Of a stretch of DNA of 64,000 nucleotides, positions 18,765 to 44,189 are shown in pieces. A model generated the notes under the pieces. That model was not told where the DNA came from, did not search any database, and was given only the letters and a program-made list of their open reading frames with translations. Position 1 is the stretch's first letter; each line of letters starts with the position of its first letter. This DNA comes from Escherichia coli (GTDB lineage Bacteria; Pseudomonadota; Gammaproteobacteria; Enterobacterales; Enterobacteriaceae), in assembly GCF_003334785.1 (NCBI RefSeq), contig NZ_QOWV01000001.1; one strand, 5' to 3'. The translations under genes were made by a program, and so were the position numbers.

Positions 18765-18863
<99 letters not shown>

Positions 18864-24017: not shown

Positions 24018-24137
24018 GGACGTAGCGTAAACGCCTGATCCGTCCAACGGTTCGGATTTTGTAGGCCTGATAAGACGCGGTAGCGTCGCATCAGGCATCT
24101 GTTGCCGGATGCGGCGTAAACGCCTTATCCGTCCTAC
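24018..24137. repeat. REP/BIME cluster between hcxB and ybiJ
   Basis: Three REP-like units including gtaggcctgataagacgcggtagcgtcgcatcaggc and gccggatgcggcgtaaacgccttatccgtcctac. Confidence 0.8.
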
Positions 24138-25724: not shown

Positions 25725-28007
25725 TCAGAAATGCATATTGGCTGTGAGCAAGAAGGTTCTTGGCTCGCCCGGGTGATAACGGTAGCCGCTCTTGTTGATT
25801 GAGGCGACGTAATCGGTATCAAACAGGTTGTAAACGTTTAGCTGGAAGTCGAGATTGCGATTAACTCGATACCCCAGTTTGGCATCGGCGACCCAGTAAC
25901 CTTCGGTAAACGCTGGCGTTCCCACCGCGCCGTCTGAACCTTTATGCATACTGCCGATATAGCGTGCGCCCGCGCCAACAGAGATATCGTCGGTTGCCTG
26001 ATATTGGCTCCATAAGGTGAAGGCGTGCTCCGGGGTATACGGCAGCGATGAGGAACCATCCTGGGCAACATCTTTGCCGTTTTTGATGGTTGCTTTTTGC
26101 TGGGTATAGCCGCCAATCACCTGCCACGCGGGAGTGATATTCCCGGCCACGGATATCTCATAGCCTTCGACGCGTTTCTTACCGTATTGCGAGTAAGTTC
26201 CGTCATCATTTTGCTCAACTTCATTTTCGATATCAGTGCGGAACAGCGCGGCGGTGAGCAACAGACGTTTATCCAGAACCTGCCATTTGGTGCCAATCTC
26301 GCTGGTGTTGGCTTTTTGCGGTTTAAAATCGGTGCGGTTGGCACTGTTACCGCTGCCAGACTGCGCAAGGGCGAAGTTGTTGCCGCCCGGAGGCTGCTGG
26401 GAAACGGCATAGTTAATATAGACATTGCCGTTTTCCGTCAGGTGATACAGCGCCCCGGCTTTCCAGTTCATCAGATTGCCCGACTTGGCGGTGTCGACGG
26501 TGGTGACCGGAGAACCTTTTGCCACACCAGTTGGGCAGGTGATGGCACCGCGTCCGCTGCCGCCGCAGGCGGTGGCACTGTCATATTCAGTATGATAATT
26601 ATCCAGACGGATCCCGCCGTTCAGCTCAAAATCACGGGTGATTTGCAGCGTATCAAAGGCGTAAATTGCGAAGGTATCCGTCTGACCATTGGCGTTTGCG
26701 CCGTTGCGCGTCAGGCCGCCGGGATGAATGCTGCTGTCAGGATGATAAATATTTACCGCGGGTAACGTCACCGGATTAACGCCGTAGTTAGTCTGCGTTT
26801 CACGGGTAAATTCCACGCCGGTACTGACATCATGACCGATAGAACCGGTATAGAACGTCGAGGTCAGGTTGGTCTGGTTGGTGAGAATTTTATTACTCAC
26901 ATCTTTGGTATTCGCCGTGCGTGACCAGGTCCAGCTATTCACATCGCTGGTGGGCTGAGTAATATTCGACGCCCCGCCCATAATCGCCGTCATCAGGTAA
27001 TCCTGCTTTACGCGCGACCAACGGGTAGTATTGCGAATGGTGGTGTTATCGTTGATGTCGTGCTCAAAACGCATGGTGGCGGTGTCGGTGGTCGAATCGT
27101 CGTAATCGGAATCCGTGCCGTAAAAGTTATGAGTATCAACTTTTCCGGAATGATTCAGGGCCGCCGTTCCCGCAGATGGGGCAGAATAGCCCGGCAAACC
27201 GATGGTCGGAATGCCGCCGTCTGGCGTGTTGTGCTGGGTGACATGCAGATAATTAAGATACAAACGATTCGCTGTACCAAGGCCAAAAGCGACAGAAGGG
27301 GCGACGCCGTAACGCTCATTTTTGACTTTGTCGCGTCCGGCATCGTGCGTTTTTTCGCCCATTACATTCAGGCGCACCGCGGTGGTATCACCAATGACCT
27401 GATTGACGTCCAGCGTGCCGCGGCGGAACCAGGCGCTGCCAATACTGGCGGAGGCGTCAATGCCGGAATCATTGCGCGGCTGCTTGCTGATCATATTGAT
27501 CGAGCCTGTCGGTGCGCTGCGCCCGTAGTCGGTGCCGGACGGCCCTTTAATCACTTCGACCTGCTCGGTATTGAAGGTGTCGCGCGAGACGCTGCCGATA
27601 TCGCGAATGCCATCAATATAAATACTGTTAGAGGTATCGGCACCACGCATATAAATGGCGTCGCCAGTGGTGGAGTTACCGTTCTCACCCGCAAAAAACG
27701 CACCCACGCCGGGGACGTTTTTGAGCGCGTCGGTAAGGTTGGTTGCGCCCTGATCTTTAATCACTTGTTCAGAAATTACCGTCATCGTGCGGGTAGTATC
27801 CGCTACCGGACGCGAGAATTTCGGATCGGCAGATTGTTGTGGCGCATAAAGCGAAGGCGTTGATGCTTCGACAACCAGCGTGTCATCCGCGTTAGTTTGC
27901 CCTTCGGCGGCGAGTGCCTGAGCCACAGGCGTGATGCCAATACAAAGACCGGCAAAGAACGTGAGCGAATGAAATTGTCTGGCAGGGAAATTGCGATTGT
28001 TTTCCAT
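25725..28007 (-). CDS. fiu: Fiu, TonB-dependent catecholate-siderophore outer-membrane receptor (760 aa)
   Basis: ORF 25725..28007 minus; signal peptide; C-terminal aromatic residue (ANMHF). Confidence 0.95.
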
Positions 28008-28100
28008 TTTGCAGGTGACTTTTTCTTATATGTTGAAATTTTCACTGCCACGAGAAAGCCTCTCTGCGGATGCGATGCCACTGTTAATCCCGTGATAGTG

Positions 28101-28128
28101 ATCGTGAAAGTGATAATAATTTTGATAA
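28101..28128. promoter_or_regulatory. Fur box(es) in fiu promoter
   Basis: tgataataattttgataagcattatcac matches the GATAATGATAATCATTATC consensus, about 100 nt upstream of fiu ATG. Confidence 0.65.
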
Positions 28129-28271
28129 GCATTATCACTTGGAGCGATTTTCTATCACCCATTGCGCGAAAAAGAAATACATTTATTTACATTGAGTTCA
28201 TATTTGATGTTTTTTGATTACAAAACAGACGAAAACTGCATCCAGAGGCGAATGCAGTTACGTTGGTGGGG

Positions 28272-28532
28272 TTATTTGTAGATGGTTGCAGTACCGAACA
28301 TCTGGTCATTTCCGCCTGCGGAATTAATGACATAACCTTTCGCGCCTTGTTCGCGCGCTTTTTCTGCCAGTTTATCCTCCAGATCGCTTAGGTTTGATGC
28401 GCCAGTTGCCGAAACGGTACCGGCGGGCCGTAGCTGACCGCTGTCCAGGTTACTCATCGGTTGCGCGGCATAAGCCGTGAGAGAGATTCCGCTCAGGACG
28501 GTGGCAATCAGTAGTGTGAGGCACTTTTTCAT
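28272..28532 (-). CDS. mcbA: McbA (YbiM), DUF1471 secreted small protein linked to colanic acid/biofilm control (86 aa)
   Basis: ORF 28272..28676 minus; start at internal ATG 28532 (MKKCLTLLIA); signal peptide; C-terminus GTATIYK. Confidence 0.88.
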   Translation of the reverse strand: MKKCLTLLIATVLSGISLTAYAAQPMSNLDSGQLRPAGTVSATGASNLSDLEDKLAEKAREQGAKGYVINSAGGNDQMFGTATIYK

Positions 28533-28807
28533 AATGACATCCTCATAAATACAACGGGTAGTGCCTGATAAGTGTAGGTCGCCTGCGCGATGCAAATGAC
28601 GCAAAAAATTGACAGAGATGTGCTTATTTTTTGAACGATATATTTTTACAAAATAAGACAAATCAATGACATGCATAATGCTGATTTTTATGATGAATTG
28701 CCATAAACCATAGCCATGTTAAGGTTTTGGGGAATGATAAACGCAGCCAGATATTTACCCTGTCGCGTTATGCGGGTATCTTACGCCGCTGCTTAAAGGA
28801 GAATGCT

Positions 28808-29734
28808 ATGTCCGCCCAGAAACCGGGGTTGCATCCGCGCAACCGTCATCACAGCCGCTACGATCTCGCCACGCTTTGTCAGGTCAATCCTGAACTCAGG
28901 CAATTCCTCACGCTTACACCCGCCGGGGAGCAAAGCGTAGACTTTGCCAATCCGCTGGCGGTGAAGGCGCTCAATAAGGCGTTGCTGGCCCATTTTTACG
29001 CCGTAGCGAACTGGGATATCCCCGACGGTTTTCTCTGCCCACCAGTACCGGGCCGGGCGGATTATATTCATCACCTTGCCGATTTACTGGCAGAAGCAAG
29101 CGGAACAATTCCAGCGAATGCCAGCATTCTGGATATCGGCGTTGGTGCGAACTGTATTTATCCGCTGATTGGCGTACATGAATATGGCTGGCGTTTTACC
29201 GGTAGTGAAACCAGCAGCCAGGCGTTAAGCAGTGCGCAGGCGATTATCAGTTCTAATCCGGGGCTTAACCGCGCCATTCGTCTGCGTCGGCAAAAAGAGA
29301 GTGGGGCGATTTTTAACGGCATCATCCATAAAAACGAGCAATACGACGCGACCTTGTGTAACCCGCCATTCCACGATTCCGCCGCTGCGGCACGGGCAGG
29401 TAGTGAGCGTAAACGCCGTAACCTGGGGCTGAACAAAGACGATGCACTGAACTTTGGCGGCCAGCAACAGGAGTTGTGGTGTGAAGGCGGTGAAGTCACC
29501 TTTATCAAAAAGATGATTGAAGAGAGCAAAGGCTTCGCGAAGCAGGTGATGTGGTTTACATCACTGGTATCTCGTGGTGAAAACTTACCGCCGTTGTATC
29601 GTGCCCTGACGGACGTGGGCGCGGTGAAGGTGGTTAAAAAAGAGATGGCCCAGGGGCAAAAGCAGAGTCGCTTTATTGCCTGGACCTTTATGAACGACGA
29701 GCAGCGCCGCCGTTTTGTCAATCGCCAGCGTTAA
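28808..29734 (+). CDS. rlmF: RlmF, 23S rRNA m6A1618 methyltransferase (308 aa)
   Basis: ORF 28727..29734; start at ATG 28808 ([10 protein letters not shown]); NPPF methyltransferase motif. Confidence 0.92.
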
Positions 29735-31956
29735 AGCGTTGGTTCCCCCGGCGGTAACGGTTCAGCCGGGGTCGCGCCCGGAGCAGGCAGCACCTGATAA
29801 GTCTGCACTGGCGCGCGAACGCCCGCCAGGTCGAAATGTTTTTTCACCTGGCTGTCGAGGGCAAAGCGTACCGTCCACTGTTTGAGTGGCAGCGTGGTGA
29901 ACGAAACACGCAGTGTAAACGCGGTATTGCTTAAGCCGACAATCCCGGCAAAATTCGGTTCACCAATAATCAGCCCGCGAATTTCTTCGTTTTCCATTAA
30001 TTCCGCTACCGCATCTTTCAGTGCCTGATTGGCTTTATCAGCATCTTCATGGCGATCAACATCATAATTTGCCACCACCGAACCAATGCCGCGGACAAAG
30101 TTAGCAAAGGTGGTTATCGAAGACCACGGAATGATGTGATACGCCCCGGTATCCTGTCGTACGCCCACGGAGCGAATCGACATCCGTTCCACTGTGCCGG
30201 TCAACGGCCCGATAGTCACCAAATCTCCAGTGTTCATGCCGTTTTCAAACTGAATAAATACCCCGGTGATAATATCTTTCACCAGCGTTTGCGAACCAAA
30301 CGAGATAGCCAGACCTAATGCCCCGGCACCTGCCAGCAATGGCGCGATATTGACGCCGATTTCCGACAACACAATCATGATGGTGATGGTACTGATAATC
30401 ACCGCCAGCGCGTTACGAAACAGCGTAAGCAGGGTACGCGTGCGGGCGCTGGGTAGCGGGCGGCCATGAATATCCGAAGCCAGCCGGTTTTCGATCAAAC
30501 TGGCGAGCACCGTCCAGCCAACCGCCGAGAAGAAAAGAATGAGTGCGATACGGATCAGGATATCTACGGTTTTCTGCCCCGCGCCGTTTTGCAGCCAGTT
30601 CCAGAAATCGAACAATCCCCATGCGCTCAACAGCAACATTACCGCCACGCAGACTGTCAGAATACGCGCCGTTTTCAGCGCCGCCGACAGCCAGCCATTC
30701 AACCGTTTTTGCAGCTCCGGATAGTTACGCTGAGTATGTGGCGAGAGAGTGATGGTTTTCGCCAGCCAGCGGGAAAACATACCGGAAACAAACGCTGCGA
30801 TACCAATAATCGCCAGGCTGCGCACCGTTGCACCCATCATAAATTTCAGGCTGTTGCCCGGATCGAACAACGAAAAGAAAAACAGCACGATAAAATAGGC
30901 GCTTGCCAGCCAGTGCCACACCAGCGCAAAGGCGCGGATAAACAGGCTGAAAAAGGCCAGCGAATGCTCCGCGAAGTTGAGCAAATGCTGGGTAATCTCT
31001 TTTTTATTACGAAAGATCAGGTACAACGCCCAGACGGTCATGCACAGCATAATGATGACGTTCGCCAGCGCACCTATCTGTACATTCACCTGATTAGAGA
31101 TAATCGGCACGGCCACAATCAGGCCATAACCTATCAAACTGCTTAACCAGCTCAGGCGACGACTCCAGTAACGGGCGCTCTCGTCCTGAATCGTGAACGG
31201 GCGCAGCTCCGCCACGTTTGGGCAAAAAATCAGGCGTAGTACGGCTTTGAAAAATTCAATGAGGGCAAAGGCGTTGAGAAACAAACTTTGTTGGAAAGCG
31301 ATGGTGCGACTGCCTGCATTCAGGTTGTCGCTTAATACCTGGCCGACAAATAATGTCAGGGCCAGTAACAGCAGGTCGATAATAAACGCCCCGATAATCA
31401 TCGCCGGAAGCTGCAACCAGTTGCTGCGCTCACGATTTTTTTGCCGCGCCCACTGACCCATTTTGCGATACAGCGGCAGTGCGCACAGGCGAATCAGCCA
31501 GTAAAAACCAAACACTAATACCGCTAACATTGAAAAATGGGTCAGCGCATTGCTGAAGGTTTGTGGATTAAACGGCTTATGCGGGGAGCCGGTGATATTG
31601 CGATAAAGTTGCCCGAAGCGGGCGGAAAGGGCTTCACCATAATGGCGGCTGACTTCGGTGACCTTTTGCAGCACGGTTTGCTCTTCGACCAGCGTCGGCG
31701 GCACTATTTTTGGTACCGGTTCAGCAGGGGGCGTAGCGGCAACGGTGCGCAACTGGTCGATCAACTCTTTACGCGAGGTGTCATTATCCAGCACATCCGC
31801 CAGTGCGCCATAGGCCGCTTTTTTTTGTTCGATATCCGGTTCCGGGGCCGGTTCAGTCGTTGAGTCCGTTGCCGTTGTGGTTGTAACGCCGGGTATGGAT
31901 ACCGCGTGGGCAGGTGCGCCCAGCAGGCAGAAGAGGATGAACAGGATCCACCGCAT
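29731..31956 (-). CDS. ybiO: YbiO, MscS-family mechanosensitive channel (741 aa)
   Basis: ORF 29731..32091 minus; start at ATG 31956 (MRWILFILF, signal peptide); multi-TM plus MscS-like C-terminal domain. Confidence 0.9.
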
Positions 31957-32106
31957 GACTCCTCCAGTGAGAAAATAGAGCAAAAAGATAAGTATAGATG
32001 CTGGAGGAGGGGCGATTTTAAATGAGAGGAATCTGGTGTGCCTCCCTTTCGGGTGAAAGGGAGGAAGGGATATTAAGCAGGTTGCTGACAACGTGCGGGC
32101 TTTTTT

Positions 32107-32206
32107 GCCGGATGCGGCGTGAACGCCTTATCCGTCCTACAAGTTCATGCAATTTTAATAAGTTGCCAGATATCCTGTAGGCCTGATAAGCGTAGCGCAT
32201 CAGGCA
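32107..32206. repeat. REP/BIME cluster downstream of glnQ
   Basis: gccggatgcggcgtgaacgccttatccgtcctac and gtaggcctgataagcgtagcgcatcaggc. Confidence 0.85.
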
Positions 32207-32216
32207 ATGTGTCTTA

Positions 32217-32939
32217 TTAAGAGACGTGCTGCAAAAATTCCTGCAAGCGCTGGCTCGGCGGGTTCTTGATCAACACCTGCGGATTGCCATCTTCCGCAAT
32301 CCGGCCTTTGTCGATAAAGATCAGCCGCGAAGCTACTTTCTCGGCAAAACCGATTTCGTGGGTCACGATCACCATCGTCATCCCTTCTTCAGCCAGATCC
32401 TGCATAACCTTCAGCACTTCATGGCGCAGTTCCGGGTCAAGAGCGGAAGTCGGTTCATCAAACAGCATCATTTTCGGCTTCACCGCCAGCGCGCGGGCAA
32501 TCGCCACACGCTGCTGTTGACCACCAGAAAGTTCGGAAGGGTAGTGATGTGCACGTTCTGCCAGACCGACTTTCGCCAGCAGCTCACGTGCCAGTTTTTC
32601 CGCCTCTTCTTTGTTCGCGCCACGCACGCGTAGCGGGCCAAACATGACGTTTTCCAGCGCTGTCAGATGCGGGAAGAGGTAAAACTGCTGGAACACCATA
32701 CCTGCTTCCTGGCGAATCAGGCGCTCGTCAACTTTCGGATCGTTAACCTTCAGGCCATCGACAATCAGATCGCCGGAGGTGATTTCTTCCAGTTTGTTGA
32801 TGCAGCGCAGCAGGGTCGATTTACCGGAACCGGACGGCCCGATAATCACCACGACTTCGCCCTGGGCAATGTTCAAATCGATATTGTGCAGCACCTGGGT
32901 TGGGCCAAAGTGCTTGGAGACGTTTTTAAATTCAATCAC
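32217..32939 (-). CDS. glnQ: GlnQ, glutamine ABC transporter ATP-binding protein (240 aa)
   Basis: Walker [10 protein letters not shown]; signature LSGGQQQR. Confidence 0.96.
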
Positions 32940-44091: not shown

Positions 44092-44189
44092 GCCTGATGC
44101 GCTACGCTTATCAGGCCTACGCAGTACCTGCAATATATTGAATCTGCAGGACTTTGTAGGCCGGATAAGGCGTTAACGCCGCATCAGGC
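44092..44189. repeat. REP/BIME cluster between convergent ybiT and ybiU
   Basis: Same two REP units and caatatattgaat linker as at 2061-2158 and 18765-18863. Confidence 0.85.

Follow-up and report, generated by a model that had tools for sequence, protein, structure and literature searches.

When two convergent genes end in the same four bases, the junction raises the questions of where each transcript can stop and of whether such an arrangement is a device by which one gene controls the other or an ordinary product of compaction. The case considered here lies in a stretch of 64,000 nucleotides of Escherichia coli DNA (hereafter the window), in which rlmF, read on the plus strand, runs tail to tail into ybiO, read on the minus strand. 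A sequence-only reading of this DNA had named both genes, placed their stop codons in one TTAA with no intergenic space, and reasoned that the two transcripts must overlap, with mutual antisense interference as a possible consequence. The explanation favored here, at a probability of roughly 80%, is that two unrelated genes meet here in a tail-to-tail overlap of minimal length, ordinary in kind and stable in evolution, and the overlap is best read as a neutral-to-mildly-constrained compaction feature.

The shared stop tetramer and its class

Direct reading of the sequence places the tetramer where both coding sequences end (Table 1): window positions 29730-29739 read gttaaagcgt, and a scripted re-reading of the TTAA, together with translation of each coding sequence, reached a terminal stop for rlmF and for ybiO. 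The first base of the tetramer doubles as the third base of RlmF Arg308 (CGT), and the fourth base doubles as the third base of YbiO Leu741 (CTT). In the RefSeq annotation of K-12 MG1655, rlmF (b0807) occupies 842332..843258 (+) and ybiO (b0808) occupies 843255..845480 (-), with 843255-843258 common to both; the annotation of strain VE-F10, which is 100% identical over 3.5 kb, likewise places the end of rlmF 4 nt inside ybiO. The stop overlap proposed in the sequence-only reading is thus borne out by the sequence, by the ends of the open reading frames (ORFs), and by RefSeq in both K-12 and VE-F10. Its gene names are right per the RefSeq annotation, and the 4-nt overlap of the coding sequences confirms that no intergenic DNA separates the two genes.

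Longer ORFs can be called mechanically at the other end of each gene. One for rlmF opens at a TTG at 28727 and adds 27 codons ahead of the annotated ATG (28808); one for ybiO (786 aa) opens at a TTG at 32091 and adds 45 codons ahead of its annotated ATG (31956), so that window positions 31957-32091 are an ORF extension of ybiO. The annotated start of the 741-aa YbiO looks signal-peptide-like. The true starts of the coding sequences are the annotated ATGs rather than those of the longer mechanical ORFs.

Table 1. Positions of the two genes, their shared stop codons, and the candidate RNA elements near the junction (window coordinates).
Feature	Position	Strand	Remarks
rlmF CDS, 23S rRNA m6A1618 methyltransferase, 308 aa	28808..29734	+	stop TAA 29732-29734; RefSeq agrees
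ybiO CDS, MscS-family mechanosensitive channel, 741 aa	29731..31956	-	stop TAA = complement of 29731-29733; RefSeq agrees
Tetramer TTAA, both stop codons	29731..29734	both strands	sequence reading
Imperfect palindrome over the shared stops	29724..29743	+	GCCAGCGU-UAAA-GCGUUGGU; 8 pairs, 3 G.U
Candidate ybiO 3' hairpin	29647..29686	-	antisense to rlmF codons 280-293; starts 44 nt past the ybiO stop
U-rich tail AUCUCUUUUUUAA	29634..29646	-	U6 = 29641 to 29636; MG1655 843160-843165
Weak candidate rlmF terminator	29802..29844	+	ybiO codons 705-719; hairpin 29802-29834, U6 29839-29844

The stop codons TAA, TAG, and TGA themselves make convergent stop overlaps of 1-3 nt impossible, and 4 nt is the minimum. 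Because TAA and TAG read as TTA and CTA on the opposite strand, one frame on each strand can end in a single YTAR tetramer. The permitted tetramers are CTAA, TTAA, CTAG, and TTAG, and the distribution of overlap lengths jumps at 4 (Lillo & Krakauer 2007, PMC2174442). Convergent overlapping pairs in E. coli have been counted as 58 (PMC2174442) and as 75 (Huvet & Stumpf 2014, PMC4161906). The annotation across the window holds 11 convergent pairs, two of which overlap: rlmF/ybiO, sharing 4 nt, and ybhQ/ybhR, sharing 39 nt. In the VE-F10 annotation, ybhQ (+, about 11106-11516) and ybhR (-, about 11478-12584) share positions 11478-11516. Like rlmF/ybiO, this second pair is a convergent overlap of coding sequences in the same 64 kb and a member of the E. 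coli excludome, as it too appears in the ExcludonFinder list (PMC12288877); it differs in the greater length of its overlap, in which 13 codons of each gene are doubly coding.

The rlmF/ybiO junction shares with the 4-nt convergent overlaps (PMC2174442, PMC4161906) its opposite-strand coding sequences, the nesting of both stops in one YTAR, the modal length, an origin by stop-codon movement or extension into the neighbor, and the forcing of terminators into coding sequence. There is no essential difference from that class, to which the present analysis adds a series of lineages and a moving RlmF tail. With two real genes on opposite strands, nested YTAR stops, and conserved frames, rlmF/ybiO is a minimal (4-nt) convergent overlap. 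As such it was already known: RefSeq annotates it, and it falls into two classes described before, the 4-nt convergent overlaps and the convergent excludons. Its conservation far exceeds what chance would give, yet as a class it is common rather than exceptional.

Conservation of the junction in the Enterobacteriaceae

Of 5426 complete E. coli genomes, 5420 contain the 86-nt junction and 5422 carry most of the 3.5-kb region around it; even in two of the most divergent junction copies (93% identity), the annotation retains the 4-nt overlap. A broader comparison drew on 80 species-level loci of RlmF relatives and two E. coli reference loci, with both stops at each locus located by script; a convergent ybiO was found at 73. 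The 4-nt overlap occurs at 34 of these 73 loci (CTAA 17, TTAA 10, CTAG 5, TTAG 2), in Escherichia, Citrobacter, Salmonella, Pseudocitrobacter, Trabulsiella, Yokenella, Superficieibacter, and others. Longer overlaps measure 6 nt (three loci, TTATAA/TTATAG, in the Klebsiella michiganensis group), 11 nt (12 loci, TTAAAGCGTAG, in Kosakonia, Pseudescherichia, and others), 26 nt (one locus), and 38 nt (two loci). The stops abut exactly at seven loci (TAATTA/TGATTA; Atlantibacter, Cedecea, and Siccibacter) and are separated by 2-8 nt at five; at the remaining nine, in Enterobacter, Leclercia, and Silvania, a gap of 34-58 nt holds a GC-rich REP-like palindrome. Judged by its sequence, this spacer looks like a REP insertion between stops that once abutted. 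REP-like spacers were seen at loci L036, L042, L054, L058, L061 (about 5913-5976), L043, L059, and L073 (e.g., GGCCGGGTAAGGCGAAGCCGCCACCCGGC and CCCCGGTGGCGCTACGCTTACCGGGG).

Within the 4-nt class, positions 2-3 of the tetramer (TA) are invariant, position 1 is only T or C, and position 4 is only A or G. The tolerated changes are synonymous in the partner gene (RlmF Arg CGT/CGC, YbiO Leu CTT/CTC). Across the aligned loci, this variation is the pattern expected under double constraint, and the overlap would persist through that constraint, which tolerates only T<->C exchanges at the first base and A<->G exchanges at the fourth.

The two proteins differ in how firmly their ends are held. The last four residues of YbiO (E738/P739/T740/L741) are conserved as residues (0.68-0.97) while their synonymous variation is high, and the ten residues before them are variable. 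The RlmF tail past Arg302 varies in both sequence and length. Because the YbiO EPTL is conserved and the RlmF tail is variable, the end of ybiO is the fixed point of the junction, and the drifting RlmF tail sets the length of the overlap. In the mechanism proposed here, the conserved C-terminal E-P-T-L motif would fix the ybiO stop, and the variable basic tail of RlmF would run on to its first in-frame stop, which in Escherichia, Citrobacter, and Salmonella would be the one nested in the ybiO stop. The RlmF frame of Kosakonia reads past the TAA that lies within TTAA and ends 7 nt later, at a TAG. The EPTL sequence itself (29734-29745; residues 738-741) may be a short functional motif; the roughly 10 residues that precede it are proline/alanine-rich.

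The same comparison bears on whether the overlap is an artefact of annotation or ORF calling, such that one of the proteins ends upstream and its last codons are untranslated or non-functional. The poor conservation of YbiO residues 725-737 and of the RlmF tail past Arg302 is in keeping with such an error. The stops are unambiguous once the frame is known, however, and both frames are open and homologous over their full length in 70+ genomes. Moreover, EPTL is conserved in the presence of free synonymous change, which is a protein-level signature, and the tetramer changes only in ways that keep both stops. An artefact is thereby largely refuted and is hardly credible as an account of this junction.

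Two groups in the comparison have lost ybiO altogether. The Kluyvera loci (L023, L024, L027, and L079) lack the gene and have a canonical hairpin, AACGCCGTTTAT...ATAAACGGCGTT, a few nucleotides past the rlmF stop. In Escherichia albertii (L007, 5928-6020), ybiO is deleted, leaving between rlmF and glnQ, glnP a stretch of about 93 nt that looks like what is left of the 3' end of the gene.

The imperfect palindrome over the shared stops (Table 1) folds on rlmF-sense RNA only; it is seen there in the centroid structure of a 131-nt region that as a whole is not significantly structured (z = -1.17). The palindrome reads CCAGCGTTAAAGCGTTGG in the window and AACGCTAAAGCGTT in Citrobacter, and the last codons of both proteins read its arms. 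It might descend from a hairpin that once lay between the genes and was taken into both ORFs, or be a coincidence. Among 66 ybiO orthologues, the lowest synonymous entropy falls at codons 334-342 and 509-513 (about 30900-30955 and 30365-30430, respectively), not at the 3' end.

Candidate transcript ends inside the partner genes

Past its stop, the ybiO strand folds significantly (z = -3.15). The candidate hairpin in this region, read from 29686 to 29647, consists of an outer stem (GGUCCAGG/CCUGGGCC), an inner stem (AAAGCG/UGCUUU), and the loop ACUC, and it is followed by the U-rich tail. Its folding energy is -19.3 to -21.0 kcal/mol on the minus strand, as against -15.3 kcal/mol on the plus strand; the minus-strand advantage of 5.7 kcal/mol comes from two G.U pairs whose plus-strand counterparts are A.C mismatches. 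When the RlmF peptide is recoded synonymously, the minus-strand hairpin is more stable than 99.2% of the recodings (-21.0 vs -10.9 +/- 3.9 kcal/mol), and 3.6% of recodings equal the plus-strand fold. Among the 54 runs of T6 or longer on both strands of the whole window, the ybiO-strand candidate has the most stable single upstream hairpin. The tail has 8 U in its first 11 nt, and its U6 starts 5 nt past the stem, which is suboptimal for intrinsic termination.

The rlmF codons that carry this element vary little. Across 76 rlmF coding sequences, synonymous-codon entropy is lower at codons 275-293 than anywhere else in the gene, and an amino-acid-corrected permutation for the pre-specified codons 276-293 gives p = 0.0004. 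The unusually fixed codons are those that pair or form the U-run, namely Ala291 GCC (71/72), Lys285 AAG (72/75), Arg288 CGC (71/75), Lys278 AAA (70/72), and Glu279 GAG (71/75); Lys277 AAA is strongly conserved too. Covariation for the minus-strand hairpin is essentially nil (0.036 vs 0.031 in shuffles, with similar values in slid controls and 91.7% of cells paired), and the candidate stem is either invariant or broken among orthologues.

All eight pairs of the stem are intact at 40 of 50 overlapping loci, at two of eight loci with REP-like separation, at two of six without ybiO, and at none of the seven abutting loci. This association of stem integrity with junction type is suggestive at the level of sequence, is confounded by phylogeny, and has exceptions, and no significance is claimed for it. 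The stem is broken in the overlapping lineages Kosakonia, Phytobacter, and Yokenella as well as in all seven abutting lineages, and it is intact in two lineages that bear an intergenic hairpin. In Kluyvera the antisense stem in rlmF is down to 4-5 of 8 pairs. Synonymous changes that break the stem and are found in nature, in Enterobacter and Kluyvera, are Ala281 GCC>GCG and Thr293 ACC>ACG. The hairpin embedded in rlmF of E. albertii is intact despite the loss of ybiO, a state that fits a loss of recent date.

A simple promoter and terminator scan over 28000-32600 found no terminator-like site past either stop; it missed the ybiO-strand hairpin because the loop is branched. Rfam returned no match at the junction, either at gathering thresholds over the whole window or at E<=1 over 29300-30200, where the only hit was a chance snoRNA (E = 0.46). 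Elsewhere in the window, gathering-level Rfam matches are a Moco riboswitch upstream of moaA at 3388-3532, naRNA4 (a REP-derived RNA) at 24064-24134, and three REP-type elements of the ES036/CssrF type (2082-2123, 18786-18828, and 44113-44155). The Term-seq supplements of Adams 2021 (PMC7815308) have no entry for the names rlmF and ybiO or for coordinates 84313x-84318x, and a name search of the TERMITe supplements found no rlmF/ybiO entry.

At steady state, Rho-terminated mRNAs too have 3' ends marked by stable stem-loops (PMC6061677), so the ybiO element could be a 3' stabilizer and not a terminator proper. It is plausible, on the folding and codon data, that the hairpin and U6 in rlmF codons 276-293 are an embedded terminator or 3' stabilizer of ybiO. 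The U-rich tail is the predicted 3' end of the ybiO mRNA, which would end at the embedded hairpin and U-tract with a 3' untranslated region of about 95 nt. That the mRNA does end at this element, or is trimmed back to it, is given about an even chance.

A competing account, somewhat less probable than that even chance yet to be taken seriously, holds that the hairpin in codons 276-293 is unrelated to ybiO and reflects constraint on rlmF, and that ybiO ends diffusely by Rho deeper in rlmF. The constraint meant is rlmF mRNA structure or codon preference in a conserved peptide rich in Lys, Gln, and Glu. The absence of covariation is in keeping with this account, as are the high conservation of the encoded RlmF peptide, the broken stems in some lineages whose genes still overlap, and the want of a 3' end in the Term-seq tables searched. 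The plus strand also has a stem of its own, although a weaker one (-15.3 kcal/mol, with 3.6% of recodings as stable). Against a purely rlmF-based constraint, the minus-strand fold is better by 5.7 kcal/mol through its two G.U pairs, the unusual codons AAG (Lys285, 72/75) and GCC (Ala291, 71/72) are exactly those that are paired, and the U-run is conserved. The stem also decays in Kluyvera, which lacks ybiO, and in most Enterobacter, which have an intergenic hairpin, and a role at the ybiO 3' end needs no intrinsic termination (PMC6061677).

For rlmF, the weak plus-strand candidate inside ybiO (Table 1) consists of a hairpin of about -15 kcal/mol, a 4-nt spacer, and U6. As a conserved rlmF terminator, 29802-29844 was rejected: ybiO has no synonymous constraint there, and the scan found no plus-strand site. 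Also set aside was a GC hairpin (CCCCGGC...GCCGGGG, ~29746-29771) in the unconserved YbiO tail, which has no U-tract and lies in the region with z = -1.17. It is inferred, more weakly than for ybiO, that rlmF is without a conserved intrinsic terminator and would end by Rho-dependent or leaky termination inside ybiO. If both candidate ends are used, about 210 nt (29634-29844) of the rlmF and ybiO mRNAs would be able to pair with each other.

The pair resembles systems of bidirectional terminators and head-on RNA polymerase collision (SEnd-seq; bioRxiv 10.1101/2022.10.23.513370) in being convergent without separate unidirectional terminators, and polymerases on rlmF and ybiO would meet within ~200 nt. 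Bidirectional terminators differ in having a single palindrome flanked by A- and U-tracts between the genes; here there is none, and the signals are two separate candidates ~200 nt apart, of which only the one on the ybiO strand is conserved. The sole new detail of the present analysis, a modest one, is this candidate coding-embedded ybiO 3' element with its local dip in rlmF synonymous variation.

Transcript overlap and antisense regulation

Given that no intergenic DNA is present and that each complete mRNA needs its own stop, the rlmF and ybiO transcripts overlap. The earlier argument that this is unavoidable is sound on the same ground, and it agrees with the listing of rlmF-ybiO, from RNA-seq, among 165 convergent excludons present in at least 50% of 58 MG1655 transcriptomes (ExcludonFinder 2025, PMC12288877). 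Each transcript must end inside the partner gene, so that the 3' ends of the two mRNAs are of necessity complementary. Terminators embedded in the unit of the neighbor are the rule for convergent excludons (146/165; PMC12288877). The rlmF-ybiO pair is like that class in being listed in it, in its short (here negative) intergenic distance, and in having terminators in the neighboring unit; it differs in that the overlap extends beyond the untranslated regions to both coding sequences. The hallmark of an excludon is mutually exclusive expression with RNase III processing, whereas rlmF/ybiO is classed by transcript overlap alone, and such a listing is nearly automatic for coding sequences that already overlap.

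A literature search with the former and the current gene names turned up only the excludon list, a table of SELEX results for sigma factors, and a genome announcement, and no pair-specific data on double-stranded RNA, RNase III dependence, or reciprocal expression were found. The SELEX table (Shimada et al. 2017, PMC5493296) reports genomic SELEX peaks of two minor sigma factors that are intragenic (type D) in ybiO, at MG1655 844530. Lying inside ybiO and away from the junction, these peaks may mark an internal or antisense promoter. Induction of ybiO is condition-specific, by NaCl through RpoS, and the channel activity of YbiO has been published. Both genes are weakly expressed, and the YbiO protein is below detection.

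Mutual antisense interference between rlmF and ybiO is therefore best kept as a possibility, as it was first put forward. In its strong form, the overlap would be a selected regulatory device, a true excludon in which convergent transcription, RNase III cleavage, or both make expression of the two genes mutually exclusive; RlmF would, for example, be lowered when RpoS and NaCl induce ybiO. Several observations speak for such a device: the place of the pair in the E. coli excludome, the spacing of 0 nt or less between the genes at 59 of 73 enterobacterial loci, the condition-specific induction of ybiO, and the higher synteny of excludon pairs as a class. The first of these loses force through the near-automatic inclusion of overlapping coding sequences in the list, and the literature on the pair yielded no double-stranded RNA, RNase III, or anticorrelation data. 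The functions of RlmF and YbiO are unrelated, no conserved element of the rlmF sense strand lies inside ybiO, and the low expression of both genes, with YbiO protein below detection, also tells against a switch. On sequence comparison, the record across lineages argues against a required regulatory coupling, in that REP-like spacers separate the genes in Enterobacter, Leclercia, and Silvania, and ybiO has been lost with rlmF kept, unchanged, in Kluyvera and E. albertii. A selected excludon is accordingly an unlikely explanation.

A more specific version is very unlikely. It supposes that a selected ybiO 3' element, encoded at synonymous sites of rlmF codons 276-293, together with a duplex of ~100-200 nt, couples the induction of ybiO by RpoS and NaCl to less RlmF and less m6A1618 in 23S rRNA. 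If this were true, the embedded element and the duplex would form a stress-linked ribosome-modification switch arising from a 4-nt gene overlap. Under the preferred explanation of an ordinary overlap, any regulatory interference between the genes is probably a minor side effect that would be likeliest to matter under NaCl/RpoS induction of ybiO.

The rlmF/ybiO junction is a clean worked example of how a stop tetramer evolves under double constraint: all four legal variants occur, and the series runs from genes separated by a REP-like palindrome to genes overlapping by 38 nt. It also illustrates how a gene that has no intergenic DNA downstream may encode the signal for its 3' end at synonymous sites of the adjoining gene. 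If confirmed, the embedded ybiO element would be a documented dual constraint, coding and regulatory, and would explain the synonymous dip at the 3' end of rlmF.
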